This document shows, piece after piece, positions 3,917 through 45,871 of a stretch of DNA of 45,871 nt. A model generated the notes under the pieces. The model was not told where the DNA came from. It worked only from the letters and a program-made list of their open reading frames with translations, and made no database searches. A program made the position numbers and the translations under genes. The stretch covers positions 1 through 45,871 of the IMG/VR virus record IMGVR_UViG_3300048560_000066; one strand, given 5' to 3'. This stretch comes from a virus (taxonomy: Duplodnaviria; Caudoviricetes). Within the stretch, counting starts at the first letter, position 1, and each line of letters starts with the position of its first letter.

Positions 3917-3940
3917 GGTTTCCTTTCGGATCTACTTCAG

Positions 3941-3982: not shown

Positions 3983-4054
3983 TTCCACGCGAGCGTTACT
4001 CGCGATGCATCATGGCCTTTCCCTCCATGCCGGTTTCGCACGCATGCTACGCGC

Positions 4055-11834: not shown

Positions 11835-13820
11835 GTGGACTACACCGACGCCAAGGTCTACAGCTCGGAGACGGCCGCCAAGCGGGCGAAGGCCTCGGCG
11901 GTCGGCGGTGACGCGAGCTGGTGGAACTGCGAGACGCCGGAGGAGCGCCACAAGAGCCTCATCACCTTCGTGAAGCAGCTCGAGACCGACTCGCAAGACC
12001 GCGCGCAGGCAAACCTTCGGTACGCCCGGCTCTACGAAAACGTCGAGCTCGAGACGATGAACGACTTCGCCGGGGCCATCGTCCGCCAGACGCTCCTCGG
12101 CCGCGGCATCGTGCGGATGAACGTCATCGCCGCGTGCTGCGACACCCTGGCGGCGAAGGTCACCAAGAACAAGCCGCGGCCCCAGTTCCAGACGTCGGGC
12201 GGGAGCTGGGACGCGCAGATGAAGGGTCGCCGGCTGAACAAGTTCGGCATCGGCCTGTTCTACGAGCTCAAGGCGCACGAGCTCCTCAAGGAGAGCTTCG
12301 ACGACGCCGAGGTCTTCGGCACCGGGCTCACCTTCCTCTACATGGACCGGGAGACGAAGCGCCTCTGCGGAGAGCGCGTCATCCCCGACGAGATTTTCGT
12401 CGAGAACGCGGACGCCCAGTACGGGAAACCCGCGTCGATGTACCGGCGCAAGCGCGTCGCTCGCGAGCGGCTCATCGAGATGTTCCCCGGCGCCGCGGAG
12501 GCGCTGATGCGCAAGGGCGAGGAGCCCATCTCGCTTGGCGCGGCGAGCGCGAAGGCTCGGACGCCGATGCTCACCGTGTGGGAAGCGTGGCATCTCCCCT
12601 GCGGCAAGCGCGCGGGGTGCCACGTCATCGCCGTCGACGGCGCCGAGCTGTTCAGCGAGCCGTGGAAGCTGAAGCGCTTCCCCTTCGTCGTGCAGCGCTT
12701 CAAGAAGCGCAAGAAGGGCTTCTGGGGGAAGGGCATCGCCGAGGCGCTCACCGGGCTCCAGCTCGAGCTCAACCGGCTGCTGAACTCCATCTCCGAGCAG
12801 CTCCGCCGCAAAGGCCGCGGGCGCATCTTCGTCCAGAAGGGGACGAGCGTCACCCCGAGCCACCTCACCAACGGCATCGCCGACATCGTCAACTACGTCG
12901 GCACCCCGCCGCAGGTCGACAACCAGAACGCGGTCGCGCAGGAGGAGTTCAACGAGGTCGACCGGCTGTACCAGCGCGCCTTCCAAGAGGTTGGCATCTC
13001 CGAGCTCAGCGCGAGCGCGAAGAAGCCTTCGGGACTCGACGCGGCGGTGGCGCTCCGGGAGTTCTCGGACATCGAGAGCGAGCGCTTCGCCCTCACCCAC
13101 CAGGACTGGGAGAACGCTCACCTCGACCTGATGAACCTGGCGCTCGACCTCATCGACGCGTACGGGAACCAGGGCTACAAGGTTCGGCTCCCGAACAAGC
13201 GCTACTTCAAGGAAATCGACTACGCGGAGATCAAGCTCGCCCGCGACAGCTACACGATGCAGGTCTTCCCCGTGTCGAGCCTGCCGCAGACCCCCGGCGC
13301 CCGGTATCAGAAGGTCGTCGAGTCGATGCAGGACGGCTTCATCGACAAGGCGACCGCGAGCCGACTCCTCGACTACCCCGACATCGAAGCGGAGATGAAC
13401 CTCGGGAACGCCGCGCGCGACGACGTCGACTACGTCATCTCCGCCATCCTCGACGAGCCCGAGCCGAAGCTCATGCCGGTCGAGCCGTACCAGAACCTCC
13501 CGCTCCTGGTCGAGCGCGCGACCGCGGCGTACCTCTTCGCCCGGCACCACGACTGCCCCGAGGAGCGGCTCGAGCTCCTTCGCCAGCTCATCGACGACGC
13601 GGCCGCGGCGCTCCAGGCCGCGACTCAACCCCCTGCCCTCCCCGGGGCGCCTGCCGGTCCTCCGCCTTCGGGCGCACCGCCCGGCGGTCCCCCGGGGATG
13701 GGCGCCCCTCCCATGCTTCCCGCCGGAGGGCCCCCGATGGGCGCCCGCATCGGCGGGGACATCACCGTCAACGCTGCACCTCCCGTGCAGCCCGTAGCCG
13801 GCCCGGTCGTCGCCGGCTGA
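11835..13820 (+). CDS. Portal protein
   Basis: ~660 aa between TerL and scaffold, GFWGKGIAEALTGLQLELN motif, Pro/Gly-rich tail; start set at GTG 11835 after GGGAG. Confidence 0.85.
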   Translation: MDYTDAKVYSSETAAKRAKASAVGGDASWWNCETPEERHKSLITFVKQLETDSQDRAQANLRYARLYENVELETMNDFAGAIVRQTLLGRGIVRMNVIAACCDTLAAKVTKNKPRPQFQTSGGSWDAQMKGRRLNKFGIGLFYELKAHELLKESFDDAEVFGTGLTFLYMDRETKRLCGERVIPDEIFVENADAQYGKPASMYRRKRVARERLIEMFPGAAEALMRKGEEPISLGAASAKARTPMLTVWEAWHLPCGKRAGCHVIAVDGAELFSEPWKLKRFPFVVQRFKKRKKGFWGKGIAEALTGLQLELNRLLNSISEQLRRKGRGRIFVQKGTSVTPSHLTNGIADIVNYVGTPPQVDNQNAVAQEEFNEVDRLYQRAFQEVGISELSASAKKPSGLDAAVALREFSDIESERFALTHQDWENAHLDLMNLALDLIDAYGNQGYKVRLPNKRYFKEIDYAEIKLARDSYTMQVFPVSSLPQTPGARYQKVVESMQDGFIDKATASRLLDYPDIEAEMNLGNAARDDVDYVISAILDEPEPKLMPVEPYQNLPLLVERATAAYLFARHHDCPEERLELLRQLIDDAAAALQAATQPPALPGAPAGPPPSGAPPGGPPGMGAPPMLPAGGPPMGARIGGDITVNAAPPVQPVAGPVVAG

Positions 13821-14804: not shown

Positions 14805-16028
14805 ATGTCCGTTACTACGACCACCATCGCCTACCTGCTGAAGCAGGTCTACCGCGACATCGCCGAGACGGTCTTCAAGGACCGCCCCCTCCTGGCCATG
14901 CTCTCGAAGCAGGGCGGCTTCACCGGCTCGGCGATGCTGCACGCCATTCGGTTCCGCGACACGCTCGCCCGGTCGCCCACCTTCACGACCGCGCAGACCA
15001 ACGCCGCGACCTCGCTGGGCGCGACTCTGGGCGTGCAGTTCACCGTCCCTCGCGTCAAGAACTACCAGCTGTACATCCTGGAGACCGAGGCCATCCTCGC
15101 GTCCCGCGATGACAAGGGCTCGTTCCTCCGCGGGCTCACCACCGAGGTCGACTCGGCGCTGAACAACGTCGCGAACGACGTCGCGAAGGACCTCTACGGC
15201 GCCGGCATGGGCGTCCGGGCGTCCGGCATCACCATCTCTTCGACGACCATCACCGTCGGCGAGTCGGTCTCGAACTTCGAGAAGGGCATGGTCATCGTGA
15301 CCGCGGCCTCGGCGACCGGCGCGCTCCGCAACTCCGGCACCGGCCAGACCATCACCGTGGTCGACCGCTCGGCCGGCACCATCGTGGTCGACGCGAACAC
15401 CGACACCATCACCAACGGCGACTTCCTGTTCGAGAAGGGCGACCGTGGAACCGGCGCCTCGCCGACTCCGCTGAAGCTGGCGGGCATGGACGCCTGGTGC
15501 CCCGCCTCCGTGGCGAGCTCGGGCGACTCCTTCATGGGCGTCGATCGGTACGCGCAGGGCGACATCGCGCGCCTCGCCGGCCTCACCATCGACTGCTCGG
15601 CGCTGAACCCCGAGGAGGGCCTGGTCACCGCGCTGGCGCTGTCCTCGCGCGAGGGCGTGGCTCCTCCGGTGTGCTTCACCTCGTTCACCGACGTGAAGAA
15701 CATCCAGATGGCGCTCGGCTCGAAGGCCGTCACCGAGTACATGGACGTCGCCGGCATCGGCTTCTCCACCGTGCGCGTGACCGGTCCCAAGGGCGACGTT
15801 CGAGTGATGGCCGACCAGTTCGCGCCTCCGGGCATCTGGCGCTTCATCACCCCGAGCACCTGGACCCTGCGGCACGCAGGTGACCTGTTCAACGTGCTCG
15901 ACCTTGACGGTGCGCCGCTGAGCCGGGTGTACAACTCGGACGCGTGGGAGGGCCGGGTGGGCTTCTACGGCAACCTCTTCTGCGACGATCCGCACAAGAA
16001 CCTCCGCGCCATCGCCCCGACCTCGTAA
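14805..16028 (+). CDS. Major capsid protein
   Basis: 407 aa after scaffold, strong GC3 codon bias, followed by GC hairpin 16052-16078. Confidence 0.85.
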   Translation: MSVTTTTIAYLLKQVYRDIAETVFKDRPLLAMLSKQGGFTGSAMLHAIRFRDTLARSPTFTTAQTNAATSLGATLGVQFTVPRVKNYQLYILETEAILASRDDKGSFLRGLTTEVDSALNNVANDVAKDLYGAGMGVRASGITISSTTITVGESVSNFEKGMVIVTAASATGALRNSGTGQTITVVDRSAGTIVVDANTDTITNGDFLFEKGDRGTGASPTPLKLAGMDAWCPASVASSGDSFMGVDRYAQGDIARLAGLTIDCSALNPEEGLVTALALSSREGVAPPVCFTSFTDVKNIQMALGSKAVTEYMDVAGIGFSTVRVTGPKGDVRVMADQFAPPGIWRFITPSTWTLRHAGDLFNVLDLDGAPLSRVYNSDAWEGRVGFYGNLFCDDPHKNLRAIAPTS

Positions 16029-16102
16029 GCCGTCGCAGTCCAACCCTTCCTCGGCGCGGGAGTAGTCGGCCCGCGCCGGGCTCCACCTGGAGACAAGACC
16101 AC

Positions 16103-16489
16103 ATGGGTGCTCGCACTCTCATCGGAAAGCAGTACACTCTCGAGCGGGACGTCGTCCGGCTCTACGGTATGGGCATCGGCGCAGGCGCCGCGAACCTCAC
16201 TGGCGTCAAGGGCAAGGGCATCACGTCCATCGTCCGGACCGGCGTCGGCGCCCACACCATCACGCTCGCGAACAAGTGGAACGGATTCCTCAACTTCGCC
16301 GCCTGCATCGTCGACACGACCACCCCCGACGACTGGGAGGTGACGCTGGTCGAGGAGCTGGTCGCGACGTCCAAGACCATCAAAATCGCCATCTTCAAGG
16401 GCGGGACCGCGGCCGAGCTCACCACCGACGAGCTGATCAAGTTCGAAATCGTCCTGTCGAACACCGCGCAGAAGCCGACGGGGTACTAA
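16103..16489 (+). CDS. Virion protein, capsid decoration-like
   Basis: GGAG RBS before ATG 16103; beta-rich; paralogue of next gene. Confidence 0.65.
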   Translation: MGARTLIGKQYTLERDVVRLYGMGIGAGAANLTGVKGKGITSIVRTGVGAHTITLANKWNGFLNFAACIVDTTTPDDWEVTLVEELVATSKTIKIAIFKGGTAAELTTDELIKFEIVLSNTAQKPTGY

Positions 16490-16490: not shown

Positions 16491-17141
16491 ATGGGCCTCG
16501 GGAACGCACACGCGGGGACCGGCATCAACCGGGCCTTCGAATCGCCCGTCTGCCTCTTCGGGAAGGCGCTCGGCTCGACCGACACCTACGTCCTCATCGT
16601 CGACGGCATCGCCAGTCTCGACCCCGTGACCGGGACCCCGTTCGTCGTCGGGGAAACCGTCACCGGGGTCACCTCGACTGCAACCGCGGTCGTGACCGCC
16701 GTAGAGGACCTCTCCGCGACGTCGCAGCGGCTTACTATCGGGACGCTCTCCGGCTCCTTCCAAAACAACGAAGCCATCGAGGGCGGCGATATTGGCGTCG
16801 GCGTTGTGGATGGCGTCGAACAGCTCGCGCTCGCGTCCGTGAAGGGGAAGGGCATCGCTCGCATCATCCCCCTGTCGAGCGCGACCGGCGGCGGCACGGG
16901 CCGGTACGAGATTCGGCTGAACGACGCGTGGCGCGGGCTCCTGGTCGCGAAGTTCAACGTCATCGACGCGACCTCGGCGGACGACTGGGAAGTCACGATT
17001 CAGGCCCAGACCGTCGCAACTACGAAGCTCATCACCATCTACGTCTTCAAGGGCGGCGCGGTGACCAGCCTCACCGGGGACGACACGCTCACCTTCGAGC
17101 TCGTCCTCGCGCTCGACAAGACCGCACCCGCGGGGTTCTAA
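16491..17141 (+). CDS. Virion protein, paralogue of 16103-16489 with an inserted domain
   Basis: Shared VKGKGI...W.G.L...DDWEVT...VAT.K.I.I..FKGG...FE.VL. Confidence 0.7.
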   Translation: MGLGNAHAGTGINRAFESPVCLFGKALGSTDTYVLIVDGIASLDPVTGTPFVVGETVTGVTSTATAVVTAVEDLSATSQRLTIGTLSGSFQNNEAIEGGDIGVGVVDGVEQLALASVKGKGIARIIPLSSATGGGTGRYEIRLNDAWRGLLVAKFNVIDATSADDWEVTIQAQTVATTKLITIYVFKGGAVTSLTGDDTLTFELVLALDKTAPAGF

Positions 17142-21100: not shown

Positions 21101-21256
21101 CAGTGGACGCACCCGTTCGCCCGCCAGAAGTGCGAGGCGCTCAAGCTCCGCCTGGCATGGGCGGTGAGCACGTCGCGCTTCCGCTTGACGAACCTCAGCC
21201 TGATGGTAGGACTCAAGGGGGGCCGGTACAAGGTCCCGAGTTCTCAGAGGATTTAA
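18182..21256 (+). CDS. Tail nozzle / tail tubular B-like protein with enlarged central region
   Basis: TGGIDNK...LLENA N-terminus, propeller-like repeats, LETPWLQLAGVQGFQRVY...RQKCEALKLRL C-terminus. Confidence 0.7.
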   Translation: MLQKQPLKLNTTGGIDNKHDEVLVLPSKLALLENALIGEGGTVESRLGFVSGTQASQANNRLAKFRKTLIIERADGLYAKNGQRIDPFPGSTGYQDFARCDAVATPILGSAELSNPSSVDVAKGLTTSCWISVTLNSGGYAGIAGVILLDSDGSEQAQFLLTDILGATQYFSPRVLPSSTAGEFHLYYVSVTAGPTYQLAHRTISAAGALGSETNVGAAMHSTMVFDVAPDVLVNSTSKFTVALKRATGDIELRAVSSADGVTASASGTVTPSIGVETLCAVTTYDGTKRHCAFFSQSNNILYACGMTAAGTMITQKTMLTLGGGSRIGRMSATDEAGATLETLAIALDVNSAAWGSSAATDPDTAGVYVLTAAKDLLSAAPLKVIARGVLLSSRIRPHIDGRKTRTVFGATRHVTGDSTTFVLDPTAAIAGGASSGTAPLILARLAIGETSLTGAATWTAQLRVPDTGTAPTFSAKSTFSFPMMRYISALQTQRSANVTPIALCRVDCDTASQAPGYVELQNGTLLYGACPYWYDGRTATEQGFNFRPILSGAAHAGAAGTVSAGTYQFYATFGWEDALGNWHESAPSDLLTVTGVLANETITFTASAMNLTWKRNVKLVVYRTEANGSVFYRDQAANSVPGFATIAVSSGGSDAGLLGGSLVPISGDVLENEPLPAMRHAVVWDNRLWMAGCGDGFDIAFSQPLAEGFGVEYNSEFRRRSNPAFGRAVAVAEYGQRLAVFGEDDIGVVFGSGPSRTGEQDNYTEIQPFETALGAVWEYPRTTAATPEGIWFQTDRGMRLLLASGSIATSDDKIELGSEIDSLLGTPALAIHCGSRRELWVWDLDNSYIYVWAYEWKQWSRLRPAGEADGGWMDALETGGIVYTGDDSGYLITYGTSVYTDDGNSVTSTLETPWLQLAGVQGFQRVYDLMVLGKDLDASANVAFTLTPAYDFGAFGSPEVSAVAVAPTNSFIQWTHPFARQKCEALKLRLAWAVSTSRFRLTNLSLMVGLKGGRYKVPSSQRI

Positions 21257-22194
21257 TGCCGCCTCCCCCGCGACCATACGACGATTCTGCTCCGGGCGGG
21301 TTCACTCCCCGCCCCGCGTGGGGTCCGCCGCCGTCGGTGACGCCGGAGAGCGTCTACCTCGAGCAGCAGGCCAACTCCCACGGCGCGGGCGCGGTAGACC
21401 CGAACCGCGTCGATACGGCGGCCTCGAACTACAACCCCTACTGGAGCCAGTACGGGCGCGACCAGCAGCAGTACTACGGCTCGCGGCCGAACGTCGGCTC
21501 CGACCCGGCGAACCAGAACGCCGCGCGGCAGTATCAGGACCAGCTCCTCCAGGGGCTCCACACGCTCGCTGCGGGGGACTCGAACTCCGCCGCGCAGCAG
21601 TCGCTCCGGCAGGGGTACGACTCGGCGCGGAATCAGGCGAGCTCGCTCGCGACCACCCGCCGAAACGTCGGCGCCGGAGCCGCGGCCCGCGGGGCGCAGC
21701 GCCAGCGCGAGGGCCTCACCGCGCAGCAGAGCGGGAACTCCGCGGCGCTCATGCTTCAGCAGCAGCGCGCGGCCGAGCAGGCGCTCGCCCAGCTCTACGC
21801 GCAGCAGCGCGCGCAGGACATCGCGTTCGCGAACCAGAACGCTCAGAACCAGCTCGGGAACCAGGCGCTGAACCAGCAAGGTCAGCAGTCGGGCGCGGCG
21901 CTCGGCCTCGGGTACGACCTCGGTCAGATGAACCAGCAGGGCCAGCTGGCGAGCGCGCAGCTCGGGTTCGGGCTGAGTCAGCAGGACATCAATCAGCAGT
22001 ACATGAACTCGCTCGTCGGGGCCGGCGCGGGCGCCGCGGGCGCCGCCGCGACCGCGTTCAACACGGGCGGGGGACGCAACGGCCTCAACGGCTATGGGGG
22101 CGTGTCGGCATACGGCTACTCACCCCAGGGTGGCGGGGGCTATGCCGGCTCGACCGCCCAAGCGCCGTGGGGCATGCCGGGACCGCAGGGGTAA
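21256..22194 (+). CDS. Internal virion / DNA ejection protein (Q/A/G-rich)
   Basis: Composition and position after the nozzle; TAATG overlap. Confidence 0.6.
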   Translation: MPPPPRPYDDSAPGGFTPRPAWGPPPSVTPESVYLEQQANSHGAGAVDPNRVDTAASNYNPYWSQYGRDQQQYYGSRPNVGSDPANQNAARQYQDQLLQGLHTLAAGDSNSAAQQSLRQGYDSARNQASSLATTRRNVGAGAAARGAQRQREGLTAQQSGNSAALMLQQQRAAEQALAQLYAQQRAQDIAFANQNAQNQLGNQALNQQGQQSGAALGLGYDLGQMNQQGQLASAQLGFGLSQQDINQQYMNSLVGAGAGAAGAAATAFNTGGGRNGLNGYGGVSAYGYSPQGGGGYAGSTAQAPWGMPGPQG

Positions 22195-22197: not shown

Positions 22198-23016
22198 ATG
22201 CCGCAAGACCCGACCACAGGCGACCAGGGCAACCACTGGGGCTCCGAGACCCCCGGCCCGGGCGGCATTCCGTCCTACACCCGCCCCGACGGCTCGCAGG
22301 CCCTCGGCTCGTTCGGCGCGACCCAGTTCCTCGGGGTGACTCCGGGGCCGATGGACCCGGAGGACTACGCCAACTGGCAGATGAGCCAGGTCAACTATCC
22401 GACCGACATCGCCAACTCGCAGGCGTGGACGCAGATGATGCAGCAGGGCGCCAACGCGTCCGAGATGCGCAACCCCTACGAGGCGAACGTCGCGAACCGG
22501 AGCTTCGCCGGTCAGGACAACGCGCAGCAGGGGCTCATGGCCGCGCTCGCCGGCCCCAGCGTGACGAACCTCCAGGCGCAGCTCGGTCAGCAGCAGAACC
22601 TTCAATCCGCGGCGCGGGCGCAGGCGGGGGGCCGAGGGCGCGCGGTGGGGATGCAGCTCGCGCAGAACGCCGGAGCGATGGCGAACCAGCAAGGGCAGGG
22701 CGCGCTCCGAGAGAACATGGCCGGGCGGCAGGTTGCCAGTCAGGGCGCGCAGGCGATGCGCGGCCAGGCGCTCCAGGTGATGCAGGACCAGAGCCAGTCC
22801 GGGCTTCAGGCACGGTCGCTCAGCGACCAGCAACGGCAATTCTACGCGCAGCAGGGCGCCCGCCTGGCGCTGGCGCAGCGGCAGAGCGCCATCGAGCGGT
22901 ATAAGCTGTTCAAGCAGCTTCAGATGCGCCGTCAACAGCAGTACGGGACGATGATTCAGAACGCGACGAACATCTCGGCGGCGGCCACCTCGGCCGCGAT
23001 GGGGTTTGGTGGCTGA
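22198..23016 (+). CDS. Internal virion / DNA ejection protein (Q/A/M-rich)
   Basis: Composition like upstream gene; small-residue C-terminus. Confidence 0.6.
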   Translation: MPQDPTTGDQGNHWGSETPGPGGIPSYTRPDGSQALGSFGATQFLGVTPGPMDPEDYANWQMSQVNYPTDIANSQAWTQMMQQGANASEMRNPYEANVANRSFAGQDNAQQGLMAALAGPSVTNLQAQLGQQQNLQSAARAQAGGRGRAVGMQLAQNAGAMANQQGQGALRENMAGRQVASQGAQAMRGQALQVMQDQSQSGLQARSLSDQQRQFYAQQGARLALAQRQSAIERYKLFKQLQMRRQQQYGTMIQNATNISAAATSAAMGFGG

Positions 23017-27775: not shown

Positions 27776-28263
27776 ACATGAAGCGCTTCCTCCTCTTCGC
27801 TGGTCTGGCCGGTGCCGTGGCGCTGGCCGCCGGCATGCCCAAGCAAGCGACCGTCTCGAGCTCAGGCGGCACCGGCCTGCGCCCCACCACCCCGGACGCG
27901 GGGGTCGCGCTCGACGGCACCGCCGCGGCGATTCGGGTGACCGTCACCGCCGCGGCCGGGACCATCACCGGCGGGAAGGTCTACTGCTTCTACCTCGGCC
28001 CGACCGGCGTGGGGAAAGACCGCGTCCTCCCGACCTACCCGAGTAACAGCTGGGTCCGCTGCCCGCTGCTCGACCTCACCGTGCCCACCGCGCTCGAGAC
28101 CGACGCCGGCACCATCCACGGGATGGTCTTCCCCGACCTCCCAGTCGTCGGCTCGTACGGCCGCGTGAGCTTCGTCCCCGGCACGTTGACCGGCACCGCG
28201 GACGACGCGGGGGTCAACACCTACATCGTCACCACCGAAGCCTGGGGGAGGACCTCGCCGTGA
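27772..28263 (+). CDS. Beta-rich protein with Sec-type signal peptide
   Basis: MNMKRFLLFAGLAGAVALA; two Cys. Confidence 0.75.
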   Translation: MNMKRFLLFAGLAGAVALAAGMPKQATVSSSGGTGLRPTTPDAGVALDGTAAAIRVTVTAAAGTITGGKVYCFYLGPTGVGKDRVLPTYPSNSWVRCPLLDLTVPTALETDAGTIHGMVFPDLPVVGSYGRVSFVPGTLTGTADDAGVNTYIVTTEAWGRTSP

Positions 28264-28871
28264 AGACCGCCCTCACCAAAATCGCGTCCGTCCTCGCGCT
28301 CGTCCTGTGCGGCCTGCTTCTGGGCGGCCAGGCCCTCGCTCCGCCCGCGAGCCAGACGGGCGCGAACGCCTTCACCGGGGCGAACACCTTCTCCGGCACG
28401 AGCGCCTTCTCCGGCGACGTGACCATCACCGGGAAGCTCACCGCCTCCGGCGCGCCAAGCGGCGGGCTCACCGCGGGCGCCGGGCTCCAAATCGGGAGCT
28501 ACAACGGCTCGACCCACGCCGGCATCTGGGCGCCCAGCATCACCGCGTCCGTCACCAACTACGGCGTGTTGCTCGAGCAAGGCGGCGGCACGCATATCTC
28601 GACCTTCGGTTCGGGCCTCACGCTCGATGCTTCGGGCGTCGCCAAGTGGACGATGGACACCACCGGCAACCTCCTCGGCGTGGCTGGAGCGACGAAGACG
28701 CGCGGCACCATCACCCTGGCGGCCGGCACGGGCACGGCGACCGTGAACTCGGGGGCCATCTGCGTGTGCGTCGACTCCACCGCCAACGCCTCCGTGAAGT
28801 GCGCCGTCGCGACTACCACGCTCACCGCGACCGGCACCGGGACTGACGTCATCACCTATCTTTGCCTCTGA
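28260..28871 (+). CDS. Fibre/spike-like protein with signal peptide
   Basis: MKTALTKIASVLALVLCGLLLGGQALA then GANAFTGANTFSGTSAFSG repeats; Cys-rich tip. Confidence 0.7.
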   Translation: MKTALTKIASVLALVLCGLLLGGQALAPPASQTGANAFTGANTFSGTSAFSGDVTITGKLTASGAPSGGLTAGAGLQIGSYNGSTHAGIWAPSITASVTNYGVLLEQGGGTHISTFGSGLTLDASGVAKWTMDTTGNLLGVAGATKTRGTITLAAGTGTATVNSGAICVCVDSTANASVKCAVATTTLTATGTGTDVITYLCL

Positions 28872-28881
28872 GGAGCACCAC

Positions 28882-29199
28882 ATGAAGAAGACCCTCGCGC
28901 TGTTGCTGCTCCCCGCCGCGCTCGTCGCGGCTTTCGCCGTCGCGGAGGACCGGGTCGACCGGCTCTACGAGACCAGCACCACCTTGCAGAGCGTGCAGAC
29001 GCTCGTGGTTGACGGCGGGTGCATTTTTTCGAGCTCGGGCTACGCGCTCCAGGACGGCGGCATGGGTCCGCGGCTGGTCTTCGGAAGCTCGCCCAGCTTC
29101 TTCGTGGCGAGCGGCAACGCAACCTGTAGCGCGCTTCTGACCGGCGGCCTGAAGTGCCTCAAGTACGGCCTGGGGCTCGATGGGGGCGGCTGCCCGTGA
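28882..29199 (+). CDS. Small secreted Cys-rich protein
   Basis: GAGGAG RBS; MKKTLALLLLPAALVAAFAVA; four Cys. Confidence 0.75.
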   Translation: MKKTLALLLLPAALVAAFAVAEDRVDRLYETSTTLQSVQTLVVDGGCIFSSSGYALQDGGMGPRLVFGSSPSFFVASGNATCSALLTGGLKCLKYGLGLDGGGCP

Positions 29200-29507
29200 G
29201 CGAGCCCGGATTCGCCCAGAAGCTGGCCAATCGCATCTTCAAGCGCGAGGCGCTTTTGATGCTCACGGTCATCGTCGTCTCCGCGGCCGGCGCCGTGTAC
29301 GGCCAGGCGCGCCTCGAGGCGAAATTGGACGAGTCCGCGAAGAAGCACGTCGAGCCCGTGAAGGCGAGCCACGACGACCTCGAGCGACGCTTCGTGCGCC
29401 ACGAGGGCGCCGAGGATTTGCGCTGGAGCCACATCGAGAAGAAACTTGACCGGTTCGAGCAACTCCTGCTCGAGGATCGCGCTGCACGAGCAGCCGGGAG
29501 GAAGTGA
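29196..29507 (+). CDS. Membrane-anchored coiled-coil protein (holin/antiholin-like)
   Basis: One TM segment then coiled coil; GTGA overlap. Confidence 0.5.
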   Translation: MSEPGFAQKLANRIFKREALLMLTVIVVSAAGAVYGQARLEAKLDESAKKHVEPVKASHDDLERRFVRHEGAEDLRWSHIEKKLDRFEQLLLEDRAARAAGRK

Positions 29508-29767
29508 TGAGCGACGAGACCCCCAAGGACGAAGATTTCACCGAGTTGAAGCCCGGACAGGGGGGCTGGACTCCTCCGGTGTGGGCCCCGTACGCGGCCG
29601 GCGCGGGCGCGACCGCCCTCGGCTCCATCGGCGCCGCGCTCCTGGCCCTGCCGGAGCCGACGATGATCACCAAGGTCTTCGGTATCGTGCTGCTCGGCCT
29701 CGCGGCCGGTCTGGGCACGGCGGCCGGCGTCACCAGCGCGGGCCCGCGCAAGGCGGGTGGCAAGTGA
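29507..29767 (+). CDS. Holin-like two-TM protein
   Basis: Two hydrophobic helices, basic C-terminus, GGAGG RBS. Confidence 0.55.
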   Translation: MSDETPKDEDFTELKPGQGGWTPPVWAPYAAGAGATALGSIGAALLALPEPTMITKVFGIVLLGLAAGLGTAAGVTSAGPRKAGGK

Positions 29768-30006
29768 AGGCGCTCGTTCTGGCGCTGGCGGCCCTCGCGG
29801 GCTCCGGGTGCGTGACGGCGAACGTCCACGCCCGGTTCTACCACGGCGAGATGCAGAAGAAGATGACCTGCATCTTCGAGCCCGGCGGCCCCGGCGTGCT
29901 CCCGGAGGCGAAGTGCGGCCCTCCGCACATCATGGACTTGCTCGTCCCCGACGAGCCCGGCGACCCGGCTCCCTTGACAGGAGCAAGCGGCCGCACCAAG
30001 ATGTAA
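29764..30006 (+). CDS. Small lipoprotein (o-spanin-like)
   Basis: MKALVLALAALAGSG-C lipobox, Pro-rich, extra Cys pair. Confidence 0.55.
   Translation: MKALVLALAALAGSGCVTANVHARFYHGEMQKKMTCIFEPGGPGVLPEAKCGPPHIMDLLVPDEPGDPAPLTGASGRTKM
29974..30002 (+). promoter_or_regulatory. Sigma70-type promoter, leaderless
   Basis: TTGACA-N17-CAAGAT-N6-GTG(30009). Confidence 0.55.
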
Positions 30007-30008
30007 GG

Positions 30009-30494
30009 GTGCGGACCATTCTCGTTCTGAGCGCAGTTCTGGCGGCCGGGTGTTCCTGTGGGAGCCCCGGCCGCTCGCTTTTCGAGTCCCGATGCGGCGT
30101 GACTGTCGTAGGCGATGAATGGCCCGACGGCTGGTCAGCCGAGGACTTCCAGGCGAACGAGGACCGACTCATGGCCCGCTTCGCCGCGCACGTCACCGAC
30201 AAGCGCTTCAAGGACGCGTGCGACCGGATGCCCGGGACGTCGCTATTCATCCGCCCCGAGGTGCATTGGATTGACGAGCTCGGCCGAGACGTCTGGGGGT
30301 TGACGAGCTGCACGATTCGCCGGATTCAGGTCGGCCGGGCGCTGGTTCCGCCGCTGTCAACGATGGGGCACGAGTACGCGCACATCATCCAGAACTGCGA
30401 GGCGTACCCCCCGATGGACAAGAAGCAGGACCCCGCGCACGCGAATTGGGTCCGCGACCGGATTCACTTCGCCGCGGGCGCCGGGTCGCTCTGA
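30009..30494 (+). CDS. Lipoprotein with HExxH zinc-metallopeptidase motif
   Basis: MRTILVLSAVLAAG-C lipobox; TMGHEYAHIIQ; start reassigned from 29757 to GTG 30009. Confidence 0.7.
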   Translation: MRTILVLSAVLAAGCSCGSPGRSLFESRCGVTVVGDEWPDGWSAEDFQANEDRLMARFAAHVTDKRFKDACDRMPGTSLFIRPEVHWIDELGRDVWGLTSCTIRRIQVGRALVPPLSTMGHEYAHIIQNCEAYPPMDKKQDPAHANWVRDRIHFAAGAGSL

Positions 30495-30495
30495 A

Positions 30496-30529
30496 GCCAC
30501 GCGCAGTGGTCTGAGACCTGCGCAGTGGC
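30496..30529. terminator. Hairpin at the convergence of the two arms
   Basis: GCCAC-GCGCA..GGTC tga GACC-TGCGC-A-GTGGC; no clear U-tract. Confidence 0.35.
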
Positions 30530-30581
30530 CAGCGCGAGTGTTTCTCGAGCAGGGCTTGCAGGCGCGTTGAGGTGTAGGCAC

Positions 30582-31253
30582 TCACGTCGGACCCCGGGCA
30601 GAACTGTAGTCGATGCTCGCCCCCGGGCCAGGGCCCGTTTCTCCGAGAAGCAGCCGAGCCTGCGTGACGTTGATCAAGCCGCGCTCGCGCAAGTCGTAGA
30701 TGAGTTGCGTCCGTCCCAGCAAAGGCTGCGGAAGCGGCTCGATGTGGAACGGTCGACCTTCCGGAATCGGCGCGCTTCGGTCGGTGCCGAAGAACTCGCC
30801 GGGTTCCGTCTGCGGAAGCCACGCATCCAGGCCAACCAGACGCGGCTCCGGGCCGAACTCCACTCCGGAGAGGAGCTCGGGAGAGTACACCGCCCGCAAC
30901 ATCTCGCTGATCTGCGTCGTCGTCGTCGTCGCCAGCGGGCGACGCTTCGGGCACCAGCGCCGGCTCGCCTCGAGAAGCGCCTCGTCCCACGCCGCCTCCG
31001 CTTGCCGACCGGCTTCCTCCGCTCCGCCGACGACGCGCAGAAGGTGCCCGACCTTGCATTCGCGTTCGTGGCCGTGCGCCGGGTTCGAGCAGCAATACTC
31101 CGTCTCGCCGTCGTAGGCGTAGCTCACGCCGGACTCGGCGATCACCTTCATGATCTCCGCCCGGTGCTCTACGACCCCGAGCACCCAGGTCCACCCGCGC
31201 TCCCCGAGCAGCTCCTCGAGGACCTTCTTGTACTTCTCGGCGTCTTCGTTCAC
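30582..31253 (-). CDS. Chimeric protein with capsid-like and portal-like segments
   Basis: GTG 31253 overlaps upstream stop; C-terminal half aligns by eye with this phage's MCP and portal (see findings). Confidence 0.75.
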   Translation of the reverse strand: MNEDAEKYKKVLEELLGERGWTWVLGVVEHRAEIMKVIAESGVSYAYDGETEYCCSNPAHGHERECKVGHLLRVVGGAEEAGRQAEAAWDEALLEASRRWCPKRRPLATTTTTQISEMLRAVYSPELLSGVEFGPEPRLVGLDAWLPQTEPGEFFGTDRSAPIPEGRPFHIEPLPQPLLGRTQLIYDLRERGLINVTQARLLLGETGPGPGASIDYSSARGPT

Positions 31254-31525
31254 GCTGGCGCCCACCCCCACAGGCGGAGCTTCGCACCACGTCCGAATTC
31301 CATTGGACAAAGACGACTGTGGATAGAACCCGTCACACCGACGGCGCGGAGCGACCGCTCCCCCTCGGCGACTTTCTCCGCAGACGCAGGAAGTGTCAGC
31401 TCGAAGCGCCACTCCCGCCACTCGAGGTAGGTCATCCGCAAGATCCGCTCGCCGTTCTTGCCCACATCCGGCTGGAGGTGCTGGGTTACGCGTTTCACGT
31501 GAAGTCCTTCCTGGCGCTGCGCCAC
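31250..31525 (-). CDS. Hypothetical protein (start uncertain)
   Basis: Coupled chain of small - strand ORFs. Confidence 0.45.
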   Translation of the reverse strand: MAQRQEGLHVKRVTQHLQPDVGKNGERILRMTYLEWREWRFELTLPASAEKVAEGERSLRAVGVTGSIHSRLCPMEFGRGAKLRLWGWAPA

Positions 31526-31677
31526 CGACGCCCGTCTTCGAGCACGCCTTCATCCCCGACCGCGTCGGTCGCGAGGCCGAGGTGCCAGGAGCCGCGCTCG
31601 CCGCCTTCCTGAATCCAGACGAGGCGCTCGACCAGAGCAGGCGCCCACCCCGGCCCGTCTTCCGCGACGTAGCCCAT
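31495..31677 (-). CDS. Hypothetical protein
   Basis: GGAGG RBS, TAATG overlap. Confidence 0.55.
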   Translation of the reverse strand: MGYVAEDGPGWAPALVERLVWIQEGGERGSWHLGLATDAVGDEGVLEDGRRWRSARKDFT

Positions 31678-31919
31678 TACGCCTTCCTCCGATACACGCG
31701 CTCGTTGCGGTCCCCGTCGCCGTCGAGCGCCGCGGTCACCGTCCGCCCTATTTCATCCGCGAGAACCGGGCGGAAGCCCCGGTAGTGGTCGACGCTCAGG
31801 AGGAGACTTGCGAGCGCGGTCTCGTCGCCGTCTTGGAGCACGTCGTCGGGCTTCAGAAGGCGCCAGCTCTCGCAGAAGCGTTGAGCGACGTATCTACTCA
31901 GTGTCGGGGTCCAGTTCAC
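31677..31919 (-). CDS. Hypothetical protein
   Basis: GTGA overlap with upstream gene. Confidence 0.5.
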   Translation of the reverse strand: MNWTPTLSRYVAQRFCESWRLLKPDDVLQDGDETALASLLLSVDHYRGFRPVLADEIGRTVTAALDGDGDRNERVYRRKA

Positions 31920-32062
31920 GGTTCGAACTCCGGCCCCTTGCAGGGCGAGCGAATGGCCTTCTCGGTGAGCTTGTTCCGGAGGGCGACGAGGCCGCACCGC
32001 CGGCAGAATCGCATCCAGGGGAAGCGCTTCACCCACGCGCCGAACGAGTGGACGGAAATCAT
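31916..32062 (-). CDS. Small zinc-binding protein
   Basis: H...CRRC...C pattern; GGAGG RBS. Confidence 0.55.
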   Translation of the reverse strand: MISVHSFGAWVKRFPWMRFCRRCGLVALRNKLTEKAIRSPCKGPEFEP

Positions 32063-32138
32063 CGCGTCCTCCGCCCGAAGATAGCGTCGAAGAGGCACAG
32101 CGCCGCGACGACGGGGAGCGAGAAGCAGAGCGCGCGGG

Positions 32139-32411
32139 TCATTGGACCGCAGCCTGAATCGCGTCGTCGATAGCGATGGCGGCCTGCACCGTCACGTCGA
32201 TGCGTGCTCGGTTCACTCCGACGGGGACGCTTGGCATGATGTCGCGGTGCGCCTCGGGGAGGGAGGTGTCGGGACCCCACTCGAAGAAGTCTCCGCGGAG
32301 CGCCGAAAGGAGCGACTCGGTGATGCGCTGAACGCGCTCCCGGCGGTCCTTTCGATCCGTAGACCCGAGGCTCCCAAGGCACGGCTGATATAGCTGGTGT
32401 TCGTCGCTCAC
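32139..32411 (-). CDS. Hypothetical protein
   Basis: GGAG RBS, GTGA overlap. Confidence 0.55.
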   Translation of the reverse strand: MSDEHQLYQPCLGSLGSTDRKDRRERVQRITESLLSALRGDFFEWGPDTSLPEAHRDIMPSVPVGVNRARIDVTVQAAIAIDDAIQAAVQ

Positions 32412-33268
32412 GGCGTCTCTCCCGGGAAAGGGGCGAACCGCGGCCCCAGCTTATCGACGATGCCGAGACCGCGCGTCGTCTTGTGAATCCGTGCCTGCGC
32501 CCGATAACGGAAGACCGGGGCGTTGATGTTTGCGAGGAAGCCGGCGTTCAGCTCCCAGATGATGCCGCCCAGCTGACGCTCGAAGTGCACCCCGCCGCGG
32601 TGTGAGTGGCCGCAGACGGTGTTCCGCTGGTTGAACGCCGCGTGGTCGCCGAGCCGGCTCCGGAAGCCGTGCATGTACACGACGCCGTCGATGACCAGCT
32701 CCTCGTTCGACTCGTTCACCGTCGAGACGCCGGGGAAGGCGTAGAGGTTCTTCAGCTCGGGGCCGATGAGGGTCGCCAGCTCGGGGGCCTTGTTCAGGGC
32801 CAGTTTGTATGGCCGGTCGTCGTGGTTGCCGATGAGCTGGTAGCACGTCGCCGCGGGGGCTGCGAGCTTCACCGCCCGCCACAGCTCCTCCGCCGCGCCC
32901 CGGCCCGTGTCGATCTCGGCGGCGGGGGTGATGTGGTTTGGATTCCGCGGGTGCCGGCCGAACGAGTACATGTCGTACAGGTCGCCCATCTGCACGACGG
33001 TCTTCGGCTGGAGCTCGGCGATGAGGTCCAGCGCCCACTCGAGCGCGCTCTCACACTGCCAGGGCGCGTGGAAGTCGCCGATAGCGACGACCGTCTCGGA
33101 GTGGGTCTGCGGCTTCGGGGCGCCGTTCGCGCGTCGTTGGCGCCTCTGGTCGGCCTCGCACGCGGTGCAGAGGCGCCGGGTGGCGGTACGCCCGTCAGGG
33201 AACTTCGACTCCCGGAATTCGCCAGGCTTCGTACAGCGCTTGCAGAGCTTCTCGGGGGACTTTTCCAT
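32408..33268 (-). CDS. Calcineurin-like metallophosphoesterase with N-terminal Cys4 finger
   Basis: GDFH, GDLYD, GNHD, HG, GHSH motifs; CKRC...CTAC. Confidence 0.88.
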   Translation of the reverse strand: MEKSPEKLCKRCTKPGEFRESKFPDGRTATRRLCTACEADQRRQRRANGAPKPQTHSETVVAIGDFHAPWQCESALEWALDLIAELQPKTVVQMGDLYDMYSFGRHPRNPNHITPAAEIDTGRGAAEELWRAVKLAAPAATCYQLIGNHDDRPYKLALNKAPELATLIGPELKNLYAFPGVSTVNESNEELVIDGVVYMHGFRSRLGDHAAFNQRNTVCGHSHRGGVHFERQLGGIIWELNAGFLANINAPVFRYRAQARIHKTTRGLGIVDKLGPRFAPFPGETP

Positions 33269-33272
33269 GGGG

Positions 33273-33548
33273 CTAGGCTACCACGCCCCGCGTGTCTTTG
33301 CCCTTCTTGCGCAGCTCGATCGTCGCGGGTTCGAACCCGGGCGGAATGGGCCCGCCGAGCTGCACTGCAATCCACGGCCGGTCAGGATGTTGGTCGATCG
33401 GACACGTCGCTTCGAAGCATGCCCAGCGCATCGGTTCCCGGCGGAACTCGCAGGAGAACTCCCAGAAGCGCCGGGCGAGCCCTTCATCCTTGTGCGGGTT
33501 GGCGACTCGGATAAGCCATAACGCGAACCGCGTCAGAAGCTCCCTCAT
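33273..33548 (-). CDS. Hypothetical protein
   Basis: ATGA overlap; C-terminus duplicates that of the upstream gene. Confidence 0.55.
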   Translation of the reverse strand: MRELLTRFALWLIRVANPHKDEGLARRFWEFSCEFRREPMRWACFEATCPIDQHPDRPWIAVQLGGPIPPGFEPATIELRKKGKDTRGVVA

Positions 33549-34060
33549 GGCGTCACCCCGCGCGTGTCTTCGCCCTTCTTGCGCAGCACCAGCGCGATGA
33601 GCATGAGCGCGCAGCACCCGAAGTGGTGCAAGTGGGGGAGCCCGCTCTCCGCGTCAAGTTCTACGCCGCGCATCCACGCGCCGAGGTGCCGGAGCGCCGC
33701 GCCCGCCAGACGGCCCCAGGCGAGGCCCTTCTCCCAGTTCCTGTCGCCGTAGCCGCGTTGGCCGTCCGGGCGGACCTTCTCGGTCGCGCCGTACCGGAGC
33801 ACCATCGCGACGGCCTCGAGCGCGTCCATCGGCAGGAGGTCCATCCGGGGCTTGCCGTCGTCGAACTTCAGGCCGACGTCGGCGGGAGGGGCCTCGACGA
33901 GCTCGAACCGGCTCTCGAAAAAAGAATCGGACTCGCCAGCTCCGAGATCGACCCGCACCAGATCATTTCCCTCGCATCCGACGACCAGATACCGGCACCC
34001 GTTCTTCAGCGGGTACCGCGCGTAGATGCACACGACTTGGTCTCCAACCTTGAAGCTCAT
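33545..34060 (-). CDS. dATP/dGTP diphosphohydrolase-domain protein with N-terminal FKVGD module
   Basis: KFDDGKPRMDLLP...VLRYGA...NWEKG...AALRHL...DAESGLPHLHH. Confidence 0.85.
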   Translation of the reverse strand: MSFKVGDQVVCIYARYPLKNGCRYLVVGCEGNDLVRVDLGAGESDSFFESRFELVEAPPADVGLKFDDGKPRMDLLPMDALEAVAMVLRYGATEKVRPDGQRGYGDRNWEKGLAWGRLAGAALRHLGAWMRGVELDAESGLPHLHHFGCCALMLIALVLRKKGEDTRGVTP

Positions 34061-34208
34061 CGTTCGTCCCTTTCTTTCTGCTCGTGCTTCGCGTCCGACA
34101 TCACTTTGTTCACCCACGCCGAATCGATGCTCGTCCCCGCGGGCGCGCTCCGCCTCAAAACCCAGCCGACGACGAGCCCGACCGCGAGGGCGGCCATCAC
34201 GAGAGCTA

Positions 34209-34700
34209 TCACGCGCCACCCCGCTTCATCCGTCCGAGGTGGAACAGCCCGAGCCCGATCGCGTCGATGGTGTTGTGGTCCTTCGCGCCGACCGAGACAA
34301 GGCGACTCAGCTCTCCTGTCGCGAGGTGCTTTAGGATGCGGTTGGTCATCACTTTCTTCGGGACCTGGCCCTTCCACGCCGCGGGGTAGTACGCGACGAT
34401 GGTCGGCACGGACTCCCAGTGAGCGGCGATGGCGCCGAGGACCCCCGCGAGCTGGATGAGGTCGTTCGGGTCCTCGCGCCGGACGCCGGGGTAGATGCGC
34501 GGCTGCTCGAGGACGAGGATATCGGGTCGGCCGGTGCGAACCACCTCGCCCGCCATCGCCGCCCACGCGACCGGGCCGGTGAGCGTCTTCTCGGGACTGG
34601 TGATGTAGCACGCCTTGATGAGAAAGGGCTGGCACCCCTCAGTCTCGAACGCCGCGACGCCGCACCCGCGAAGGCCGGGGTCGATAGCGATGAGTCTCAT
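34209..34700 (-). CDS. RuvC-like Holliday junction resolvase
   Basis: LIAIDPG...LVLEQP...PAAWKG...HNTIDAIGLG. Confidence 0.8.
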   Translation of the reverse strand: MRLIAIDPGLRGCGVAAFETEGCQPFLIKACYITSPEKTLTGPVAWAAMAGEVVRTGRPDILVLEQPRIYPGVRREDPNDLIQLAGVLGAIAAHWESVPTIVAYYPAAWKGQVPKKVMTNRILKHLATGELSRLVSVGAKDHNTIDAIGLGLFHLGRMKRGGA

Positions 34701-34933
34701 TGGCGCCCCCGCGGCGGCATCTGAAGGAAGCCGTTGTCGATACGGACGACGTTGTCGTTCGCCGGAGGGGCGTAGAACTGCTTCATCGCCGCCTCGAGCG
34801 CCTTGTACTCCGGCGACCGGCGGATCTGCCACACGCGATAGGCGGAGAGCGCGGCGCGGCCCCAGCGAGCGGCCTCGCCGACGAAGAGGAACGTGAGGAT
34901 GGTGAGCATGTAGAACTGCGCGGTTTCGTTCAT
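34697..34933 (-). CDS. Small membrane protein
   Basis: GAAAGG RBS, N-terminal TM segment. Confidence 0.5.
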   Translation of the reverse strand: MNETAQFYMLTILTFLFVGEAARWGRAALSAYRVWQIRRSPEYKALEAAMKQFYAPPANDNVVRIDNGFLQMPPRGRQ

Positions 34934-35649
34934 GACGTGCCTTTCAGGTGCGGCGGGAAGTGCGTGTTGTACTCGAACAGGAAGTTGTTCTCTGCGGTAA
35001 ACGGGGTCCACCCGAGCACCGACCAGTTCTTGTCGCGCGGCCACACCGCCGGGAGTTTCCCGAGCTTCGTGGTCTCCCCCCAGCCTTCGGGTGATCAAGC
35101 TCTTGTTCATTTGGCACTCCTCCGCGCGGCGTTCGCGTCCTGGACCGCTGCGTAGAGATTCCAGGCCGCCTTCTGGACCTCTGTCGGCTCCGCACGGACC
35201 CATCCCGCGTGGCATGCATCCGAGCGCCGCCATTCTCCAGCCTCGCGGTAGTGGCCTCCCATGTACATCTCGAGGACTACGACAAATACGCGCCGCATCT
35301 CATCCGGCGAGAGTTCGACAGAGGTCGTGACATGAACTCGCATGCTCACTTGGGCTCCACCGTGGCGCACTCGCAGACCGGGACCGCCCCGCCCGCCTCA
35401 TGGCGCTCGGAGTAACTCTTCATCCGCCCGCCCTTCGAGTCGAAGCATGCCTTCGCGCAATTCGTGGAGTTCTCGCAGGCAACGCAGCTCGCCCCCATCG
35501 CGAACATGCACACCAGCGCCAGAATGATCATCCCGATAACCGATTCGTTCTCGCTCACTTGTCTTCCTTTCCGACGTACACGCCCATCACGAACGCCGTC
35601 ACCGCGACGGCGATGAAGCTCACCATGCAAAACAACACCTCGTGCTCGC

Positions 35650-36084
35650 TCACAGGTCCCTTTCGACTTTCTGCTTCACCTTGTCTAACGCAGCCGAAGC
35701 GATTTGTCGAATGCGTTCTCGCGTGAGGCTCAGCACCGACCCGATTTCCTCAAGCGTGACACCCCCCTTCGCCGCGACGTCCAGCGCGCAGGTCTCCGCC
35801 ATCGACTCCAGGTCCGGGGCGTTGTAGGTGACGCTCCCCGTCGGGTTGACCTCGAGGTAGAGGTGGTACTTGCAGCTGACGAAGGGGCAGGGGCGACACC
35901 CGTTTTCGCACTCGGAGCGCGTCGTAGGCTTCACCGGAAGGGTCTCCCCGTCGTCCTCCGCCTCGTCCTCCGCCCGGCGCGTGGGGGCGAGCCGGCGCAT
36001 GAGCTTCGCGCTCTCGGTGCGCACGCGGCCCGTGCCGGTGACGAAGCCCTTCGATGTCGCACGACCTTTGGATGGAGAGGTCAT
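35650..36084 (-). CDS. Sigma70 region-4-like HTH protein with Cys/His-rich N-terminal module
   Basis: TLEEIGSVLSLTRERIRQIASAALDKVK matches sigma70 region 4.2; CRPCPFVSCKYHLY...TCALDVA. Confidence 0.85.
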   Translation of the reverse strand: MTSPSKGRATSKGFVTGTGRVRTESAKLMRRLAPTRRAEDEAEDDGETLPVKPTTRSECENGCRPCPFVSCKYHLYLEVNPTGSVTYNAPDLESMAETCALDVAAKGGVTLEEIGSVLSLTRERIRQIASAALDKVKQKVERDL

Positions 36085-40648: not shown

Positions 40649-41224
40649 TCAAGTCCAGTCGTACGCTTCGGCCTCTTCCCGCGTAAGGAAGAAGTGAATC
40701 CCGCGCGTGCATTGGACCGCGGGGTCTGCGTCGTAGTCGTCGACTACGACCTCGGCGCCGACGCGGTACTCGAAGCGCGGGTCGTGTTTCGAGTACGCGA
40801 CCTCGCCCGCGGACATCGAAAGCACCTTCGCCCGTGACGCGCGGCACTTGCGCCACTTCGAAGTCATGACCGGCTCGACGCGCGGGCCCCGGACCTCGAG
40901 TTCGACGAGTACCGCTCCGTCCAACGCGCCGACGAGCTTTTTCCAAGCGGTGAACGCGCCTTTCGGAGCGATCTTGGTCTCGTACCGCGCGCCCCGGAGG
41001 TCCGCGCCCTGGAGGTTCGCGTTCCGGAGGTACGCGCCCTGGAGGTCCGCGCCCTGGAGGTTCGCGTCCCGGAGGTACGCGCCCTCGAGGTCCGCGCGCT
41101 GGAGGTCCGCGCCCCGGAGGTCCGCGCCCTGGAGGTTCGCGCGCTCGCCTCCCACTTCCCCGCGCAAGTAGAGCGCATGCTTCGAGAGAACGACTTTCAA
41201 CTCTTCAGCGGTGTATGTTTTCAT
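40649..41224 (-). CDS. Pentapeptide-repeat protein with DUF5758-like C-terminus (copy B, 10 repeats)
   Basis: Repeats 40991-41140; KCRAS...[22 protein letters not shown]. Confidence 0.9.
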
Positions 41225-45021: not shown

Positions 45022-45791
45022 CCCGAGTAGTCCCGCGCTTCCTCGAACGTCTGGAAGAAGTGAATCCCGCGCGTGCACTCGACGCGGATGTCATCGTCGT
45101 AGTCCTTCACGCGGACGACCTTCCCGACGGTGTAGAAGAAACCCACGTCGTGCATCGACCTGGCGGTCTTCGTCCGAAGCTTCCCCCCCTCGAGCGAGTA
45201 CACTCCGAGGACCTTCGCCGCCTCCGCTCGGCACTTCCGCCCGATGGGCGTCGCGGTGCGTTTGCCGCGGACCTCGAGCTTGAGGAGGACGTGCACACGG
45301 AACGGCCGGGCTGGGAACGCTTTCTTCCATACGACGAGCGGGCCCTCCCGGGGGAGCTGGAAGGCCGGGAGGTTCGCGCCCTGGAGGTACGCGCTTCGGA
45401 GGTCCGCGCCCTGGAGGTACGCGTCCTGGAGGTCCGCGCCCTGGAGGTTCGCGCCCTGGAGGTTCGCGCCCTGGAGGTTCGCGCCCTGGAGGTTCGCGCC
45501 CTGGAGGCCCGCGCCCTGGAGGTTCGCGCCCTGGAGGTACGCGCGCTGGAGGTCCGCGCCCTGGAGGTACGCGCCCTGGAGGTTCGCGCCCTGGAGGTTC
45601 GCGTCCCGGAGGTTCGCGTCCCGGAGGTACGCGCGCTGGAGGTTCGCGCCCCGGAGGAACGCGCGCTGGAGGTCCGCGCCCTGGAGGTTCGCGCGCTGGA
45701 GGTACGCGCGCTCGCCGCCCGCTTCCCCGCGCAAGTAGAGCGCATGCTTCGAGAGAACGACTTTCAACTCTTCAGCGGTGTATGTTTTCAT
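45018..45791 (-). CDS. Pentapeptide-repeat protein with DUF5758-like C-terminus (copy C, 22 repeats)
   Basis: Repeats 45378-45707; KCRAE...[22 protein letters not shown]. Confidence 0.9.
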   Translation of the reverse strand: MKTYTAEELKVVLSKHALYLRGEAGGERAYLQRANLQGADLQRAFLRGANLQRAYLRDANLRDANLQGANLQGAYLQGADLQRAYLQGANLQGAGLQGANLQGANLQGANLQGANLQGADLQDAYLQGADLRSAYLQGANLPAFQLPREGPLVVWKKAFPARPFRVHVLLKLEVRGKRTATPIGRKCRAEAAKVLGVYSLEGGKLRTKTARSMHDVGFFYTVGKVVRVKDYDDDIRVECTRGIHFFQTFEEARDYSG

Positions 45792-45871
45792 GGTTTCCTT
45801 TCAAATACAGCGTAACACATCCACTTCCGTTCCGCAACTCAACTCCGCAACTGCACCACTTTCCCCTCGAC
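45624..45871. repeat. Terminal overlap, right copy (matches 1-248)
   Basis: 246/248 identical by eye. Confidence 0.95.

Follow-up and report, generated by a model that had tools for sequence, protein, structure and literature searches.

A phage gene that joins a conserved N-terminal domain to capsid- and portal-like pieces, a possible decoy for host sensors of virion proteins

The locus studied here raises the question of what a phage could gain from a gene outside its virion arm whose product carries pieces of both the major capsid protein (MCP) and the portal protein. The window, that is, the whole stretch of 45,871 nt that was analysed, is an apparently complete phage genome of ~45.6 kb with a GC content of 67%, assembled from bioreactor metagenomes. 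A 248-nt repeat, 99% alike at both ends (1-248 and 45624-45871) and lying inside a pentapeptide-repeat region, suggests that the genome is circularly complete, whereas the record lists it as linear and 50% complete. Periodic repeats of 15 nt were also seen at three loci, 3266-3916, 40649-41224 and ~45107-45871 (-); two of them encode pentapeptide-repeat proteins with a common N-terminal domain (phrog_7713), and the third spans the end repeat. The plus arm holds the genes for the terminase, the portal, a likely scaffold, the MCP and the tail, and the minus arm those for a primase-helicase, DNA polymerase A, a RuvC-like resolvase and a metallophosphoesterase. The MCP was modelled with an HK97 fold (pLDDT 86.8), its top Foldseek match being the SU10 capsid (E=1e-10); the phage's own portal scored below the cut-off against PF23899 (SU10_portal), a domain carried by many portal homologues. 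No cultured relative of the phage was found.

The mosaic gene (product P0001; Table 1) has the marks of a genuine reading frame. Its GTG start overlaps the stop of the upstream ORF by 4 nt, an arrangement that may reflect translational coupling, and is preceded by a G-rich stretch. In this frame, GC is concentrated at third codon positions (GC3 0.83). A single close homologue, P0005, is 55% identical over nearly its full length and shares the start position. A second IMG/VR contig is identical to the window over 20.7 kb, and a single contig from another run, possibly of the source sample, covers 28000-36000 with zero differences; a pseudogene or an assembly artefact was rejected on the grounds of the intact homologue and these two contigs. 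No variants within the gene were found in four DNA runs. Contigs from RNA libraries cover the gene, but they cover the whole surrounding region too and so do not demonstrate its expression, and no promoter consensus was found.

Table 1. Positions in the window of the mosaic gene, its parts and the related virion genes.
Feature	Position	Strand	Remarks
Mosaic gene P0001, 223 aa	30582..31253	-	Minus arm (replication/accessory), at its far end; convergent with the end of the virion arm
N-domain ('carrier'), residues 8-96	30966..31232	-	Undescribed family, predicted helical
Piece i, copied MCP N-terminal arm (profile ~1-34)	30843..30932	-	Residues 108-126 significant, the rest collinear via P0005
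Piece ii, copy of MCP 226-252 (GLxAW helix, FFGxDR motif)	30771..30842	-	HMM E=3.3e-7
Piece iii, copy of portal positions 483-517, helix-turn-helix	30645..30749	-	Ungapped score, hhalign
C-terminal 20 residues, possible fourth piece (MCP ~44-67), weak	30585..30644	-	13/20 identical to P0005
Upstream ORF, stop overlapping the mosaic start by 4 nt	31250..31525	-	Without family match
MCP, donor family of pieces i and ii	14805..16028	+	phrog_14242, phrog 9953
Portal protein, donor family of piece iii	11838..13820	+	phrog_156; own segment 13266-13370

The gene consists of two parts, a conserved N-terminal domain (N-domain, or carrier) and a tail of capsid and portal pieces. The first-pass annotation, which had placed the gene and its segments correctly to the coordinate and the residue, proposed that three segments of the product resemble the phage's own MCP and portal. 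Compared with those genes themselves, the likeness was at chance level (E=4.8 for the portal piece in a window-wide tblastn, E=0.16 for capsid piece ii against 8 loci), and the observation was confirmed by comparison with profiles of the two protein families. Profiles were built from 88 MCP sequences and from the best 120 of 458 portal sequences. The MCP HMM matched residues 138-161 of P0001 to MCP 226-252 with E=3.3e-7, and the ungapped scores of pieces i, ii and iii in P0001 (20.2, 25.3 and 21.8 bits) were reached by 0/150 shuffles each, so that all three pieces exceeded every shuffled control. Piece iii gave a weak gapped HMM match in P0001 (E=0.03-0.05) and a clear one in P0005 (E=6.8e-6; 34.8 bits ungapped). 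Profile-profile comparison with hhalign yielded E=2.1e-6 with the MCP and 2.5e-5 with the portal.

In a blind scan of 27,390 stop-to-stop ORFs from 155 sequences, which left aside full-length MCPs and two MCP starts at contig ends, the mosaic gene was the sole non-capsid match to the MCP HMM at E<1 (E=0.0066). When the mosaic profile was used in reverse, 36 of the 37 non-self matches listed were portals or MCPs (best E=0.037), as judged by size and position at loci that had been fetched around such genes. Ranked by likeness to the pieces, the phage's own protein came 22nd, 24th and 78th among the 88 MCPs and 52nd among the 120 portals; by this measure the pieces resemble the family at large no less than the proteins of this phage. 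The ungapped alignment of piece iii with the own portal, counted by hand in the first-pass annotation as 11/35 identical residues, gave 11/35 on recounting, and the corresponding DNA is identical at only 53/105 positions, in agreement with the earlier view that the segments are diverged and do not stem from a recent duplication.

The tail follows the order MCP ~1-34, MCP ~226-270, portal 483-518 and a final 20 residues, the tiled region extending over residues ~108-203. Piece i, which in P0005 scored 23.6 bits over MCP positions 3-34, would correspond to the N-arm, judging from the secondary structure of the MCP model and the HK97 fold. The source of piece ii lies within the 45-residue segment that is most conserved in the family (99th percentile of conservation), and the piece reaches to ~MCP 270 in the profile-profile alignment. 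From its position and the general architecture of portals, we take piece iii to be part of the crown domain; the accessible parts of the literature on portal structure name the domains without residue ranges (PMC9509320). The possible fourth piece was not significant in P0001, and in P0005 it scored 15.3 bits (0/200 shuffles) in a window-restricted test only. Within piece ii, P0005 has a 16-residue insert that resembles MCP 331-353; as an additional piece it is suggestive, since 7% of shuffles reach its score over the whole profile and p=0.005 in a window-restricted test.

The pieces adjoin with almost no linker, and the joints lie at spots where both donors look alike, which suggests recombination at short homologies. 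The portal piece stands behind the capsid pieces, yet the portal gene precedes that of the MCP in the genome, so that several events would have been needed; for the same reason, and because two donor genes are involved, the gene is not a simply deleted capsid gene. An HK97-fold capsid protein or paralogue, which should show spine helix, P-domain sheet, A-domain and E-loop collinearly over some 250 residues or more, was rejected, as only ~1-34 and ~226-270 of the 406 MCP positions match and the spine helix and the P-domain sheet are absent. A portal protein or paralogue, which should show wing, stem, clip and crown over at least 450 residues, was likewise rejected, with only 483-518 of 653 positions matching. 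SU10-type MCPs (PF17236) and portals (PF23899) are thus akin to the mosaic as the donor families of its pieces, but the mosaic holds less than one quarter of the MCP profile and 35 of the 653 portal positions, out of order, and neither fold could be formed. The AlphaFold model of the mosaic protein, from a two-sequence alignment, had a pLDDT of 40 overall and of 22-35 across piece ii, and the best ESM Atlas scores (0.81 and 0.79) are leads only.

No match to P0001 was found in Pfam (E<=0.1), PHROGs, NCBIfam or PADLOC (E<=0.01). Close homologues with available DNA came only from the same phage among viral contigs, and none was found in metagenome or genome contigs or in named phages. The gene was absent from 47 other virus records with this capsid-gene type (0/47), six other matches being the portals of those records, and the 15 virion-gene profiles revealed no further piece-built gene among the 688 ORFs of the phage genome. 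The N-domain family was likewise missing from 5 genome bins and from these 47 records, of which 13 have a completeness of 90% or more. The domain matched 0/15 virion-gene profiles and nothing among PDB sequences below E=0.45. In the alignment of homologues it keeps Cys, His and Cys residues, which could form a metal site, and an LLRxxGGxEExQRQ motif.

Among 1.84 billion representatives, a profile that also covered the tail, and so favours piece-bearing members, found 26 hits, namely P0001 and 25 distant homologues (E 1e-13 to 1e-3) that match mainly at residues ~8-100 and have no curated-profile match at E<=0.001. Tails of at least 12 residues were present in 25 of 27 sequences, the other two ending within 12 residues of the N-domain. 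Scores above all 60 shuffles were obtained for 4/25 tails against the MCP, 3/25 against the portal and 0/25 against TerL, scaffold, adaptor and nozzle, and for 1/27, 0/27 and 1/27 sequences when the N-domains were tested in place of the tails. With the two query proteins P0001 and P0005 removed, 2/23 tails remained for the MCP and 1/23 for the portal.

The first-pass annotation had suggested looking for homologues that combine the same N-domain with different structural fragments, and homologues with this domain and capsid or portal pieces were found. An MCP N-arm closes the tail of P0229 (E=3.4e-7), and in P0227 the portal stretch known from P0001 (E=1.7e-4) stands behind an N-arm-like segment. 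A leave-out HMM confirmed the N-domain, independently of the tails, in P0229 (E=3e-10) and P0227 (E=1e-8), whose N-domains are about 26-36% identical. Between P0005 and P0229, 22/86 residues are identical in the N-domain and 18/37 in the N-arm piece. P0226 showed two weak pieces, arranged as in P0001, and P0228 a single one, near the background of 0-2/23 per window. The same few donor regions recur across homologues, and the N-arm, directly behind the N-domain, is the piece most often kept.

The majority of the N-domain homologues have no detectable piece, and most of the 25 distant ones have short or unrelated tails; the pieces thus look like optional cargo on a carrier. One such member, P0224, lies in a phage accessory region ahead of terminase genes. 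Only 4/24 inner branches of the N-domain tree were supported, and with so weak a tree a single capture looks the same as repeated ones. Two motifs noticed by eye in other tails were not supported: for a terminase-nuclease-like one in P0237, 0/25 tails beat the shuffles against TerL, and a head-morphogenesis-like one in P0219 was not significant (phrog_2468, E=0.09). A short acidic C-terminal motif was also seen in P0216, P0217, P0220, P0221, P0224, P0230, P0232 and P0236, and may be a mere overlap with the ribosome-binding site and start of the next gene.

Between P0001 and P0005, 76/105 residues of the N-domain and 57/113 of the tail are identical, and the tail is open in frame over 117 residues with 50% identity. 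The enrichment at donor-conserved columns of residues common to both proteins was marginal, at 17/30 versus 13/34 (Fisher p=0.11), and likewise by another measure (p about 0.055); profiles detect conserved pieces best, so that the bias to conserved motifs is partly one of ascertainment. Taken with the distant homologues, the alignments indicate that the pieces have been kept over a long divergence.

The core proteins of the virion are under too much constraint to escape host sensors by mutation. Copied pieces of an interface would most simply bind what the originals bind, and the candidate partners are host sensors, the scaffolds or subunits of other phages or satellites, and the head of the own phage. 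Our preferred reading, which we hold tentatively and put somewhat short of probable, is that the tail is bait that occupies host anti-phage sensors reading short stretches of unassembled virion proteins. Host sensors are favoured because the gene lies in the replication arm and is sporadic like accessory counter-defence genes, because it combines parts of two virion proteins, unrelated to each other and each a known trigger, and because its pieces are family-like and not self-like, as would be expected of bait against broad-range sensors. The retention of pieces across N-domains only 26-36% identical also counts for bait. Against it count the small number of tails above shuffles (2/23 and 1/23), recruited by a profile that included the tail, as well as the marginal enrichment at donor-conserved columns in a tail that is less conserved than the N-domain. 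None of eight neighbours of the mosaic gene (0/8) matched a defence-related model.

The bait would arise and act as follows. Recombination would have taken up the pieces in frame from capsid and portal genes of the SU10 type, which need not be those of the own phage. To judge from its position, the gene would be made with the replication arm, ahead of the build-up of true capsid and portal proteins. The pieces would then bind motif-reading sensors, Lit- or CapRel-like and not Avs-like, which would stay inactive as the rest of the trigger is missing, while the N-domain would provide stability, oligomerisation or a blocking surface. As most relatives are without pieces, the N-domain probably has a job of its own. 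A bare motif could also trigger motif-reading sensors instead of blocking them.

The nearest precedent is DSAD1, an SPbeta inhibitor of DSR2 that fills the sensor's tail-tube pocket while leaving the sensor inactive and that is likewise a phage non-structural protein mimicking a virion protein, the tail tube (PMC10973363, accessible parts). DSAD1 mimics just one trigger and its target is known, whereas mimicry by the mosaic would rest on sequence pieces copied from two virion proteins and set on a carrier domain; its MCP and portal pieces resemble phage triggers in sequence, which does not imply a trigger role for the regions copied. Short linear stretches of capsid can be read by the host: in the accessible parts of the sources, Lit and CapRel detect the MCP through short motifs (PMC13581612), as in the case of the Lit protease with its gol peptide and of CapRel-SJ46 (PMC13581612, PMC13728456). 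Together with DSAD1, which occupies without activating, this short-motif reading counts for bait. The Lit and CapRel-SJ46 motifs are triggers inside the real MCP, and no separate bait gene presenting such motifs was found in the literature searched; the accessible parts of PMC13728456 and PMC12578639 describe no decoy of the mosaic kind.

By this comparison, motif readers such as Lit and CapRel suit the pieces better than Avs proteins do. The STAND sensors Avs7, Avs8 and Avs10 for the MCP, and Avs4 and Avs11 for the portal, sense the same two proteins from which the pieces derive, and the first-pass annotation had named Avs STAND NTPases among the possible targets. This part of the proposal appears to be a poor fit. 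Avs7, Avs8 and Avs10 bind conserved folded MCP cores over extended interfaces (PMC13581612, accessible parts) and envelop the folded A-domain of a whole monomer, which pieces of 15-35 residues are unlikely to rebuild; a string of short pieces would be a poor ligand, and for the interface of Avs11 with the portal the accessible parts of the same source give no model. The sequence of the mosaic cannot reconstitute an A-domain, and its own model, at pLDDT 40, is uninformative on this point.

The frequent retention of the N-arm directly behind the N-domain also fits another reading, that the tail jams competing phages or satellites as they assemble their virions, with the N-arm soaking up scaffolding or size-redirecting proteins and the other pieces acting as dominant-negative subunits. 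In the 80alpha system the C-terminal helix of the scaffold binds mainly the N-arm helix, and the CpmB protein of SaPI competes for the site of the scaffold, but the scaffold site also needs the cleft that lies between domains A and P, which a loose helix would lack (PMC5644958, accessible parts). CpmB and other satellite capsid redirectors act at a scaffold site adjoining the very piece kept most often here (same source); CpmB mimics the scaffold and is encoded by the satellite, whereas the mosaic is a phage gene that copies the capsid side of the interface. Pieces that are not nearest to the own proteins would limit self-harm, and yet they match the family of the own phage, with a risk of self-poisoning, and no satellite or competitor was identified. 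We regard assembly jamming as rather unlikely, though it follows closely behind bait.

Distinctly unlikely, in our view, is a third reading: function would lie with the N-domain, and the tail would be left over from in-frame recombination with virion genes, tolerated and slowly decaying. The short or unrelated tails of most distant homologues, among them the two that end within 12 residues of the domain, would suit a relic, as would a tail that diverges faster than the N-domain, the non-significant test at donor-conserved columns and the low pLDDT across piece ii. A relic would hardly explain a 117-residue tail still open and 50% identical in P0001 and P0005, nor recognisable pieces where the N-domains have diverged to 26-36% identity, and pieces of two genes in non-genomic order call for several events, each kept in frame. 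It is improbable that the tail serves the phage's own assembly as an address tag or timer, hooking the N-domain to the scaffold or portal for packaging or delaying assembly until late. For this reading, the N-arm and, by extension, the portal crown would face the procapsid interior on the scaffold-binding side (80alpha; PMC5644958, accessible parts). Against it, the own MCP and portal are not those nearest to the pieces, the virion arm does not include the gene, and a domain absent from 47 other same-capsid records and 5 bins is not a core assembly factor.

Genes built from pieces of virion proteins were not found described for phages in the open-access literature, and the mosaic architecture is unlike any described family found. 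What appears to be new is a carrier family with members bearing no, one or several pieces, including distant homologues with pieces. Taken more broadly than the single tail, phages may keep a class of 'carrier plus bait' genes in which captured and shuffled conserved virion pieces form a multi-epitope decoy that blinds capsid and portal sensors; we offer this as a possibility and doubt it somewhat. How phages escape from protein-sensing immunity is an open question, to which a piece-collecting gene family would add a new way out, each kept piece pointing to a surface read by a sensor, a scaffold or a satellite. If the carrier-plus-bait reading were true, the kept pieces would map the epitopes of a hitherto unrecognised, motif-reading branch of bacterial immunity. 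The family is small and clonable, and its natural controls with none, one or several pieces make a decoy and an assembly inhibitor directly testable against each other. Even under the rival readings, the gene shows a route to new genes through in-frame shuffling of virion gene fragments.

Several other features of the genome were observed. At the end of the virion arm, 28260-30494 (+) encodes several small secreted or lipoprotein-like proteins without a match in the profile search, whose motifs recall those of proteins we take to be myxobacterial; with the GC content, this hints at a host among the Myxococcota. An intein lies in the large terminase subunit (8893-11355, +), where residues 450-486 and 723-752 match Hint; the gene also encloses, in a different frame, an ORF for an HNH endonuclease (10485-11108, +), and both frames are open for ~200 codons. 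Adjacent paralogous gene pairs occur in the virion arm at 15944-16489 and 16491-17141 (+) and at 21103-22194 and 22198-23016 (+). In the minus arm, 35650-36084 (-) encodes a 144-aa protein with a sigma-70-like C-terminal segment at residues ~107-142, possibly a transcription regulator. A related phage has its MCP in two parts, divided after residue ~28 (G038:C1:5529-5615 and 3636-4778 (-)) and ~750 nt apart, which could represent an insertion, an intron or a separate copy of the N-arm upstream of the capsid gene.
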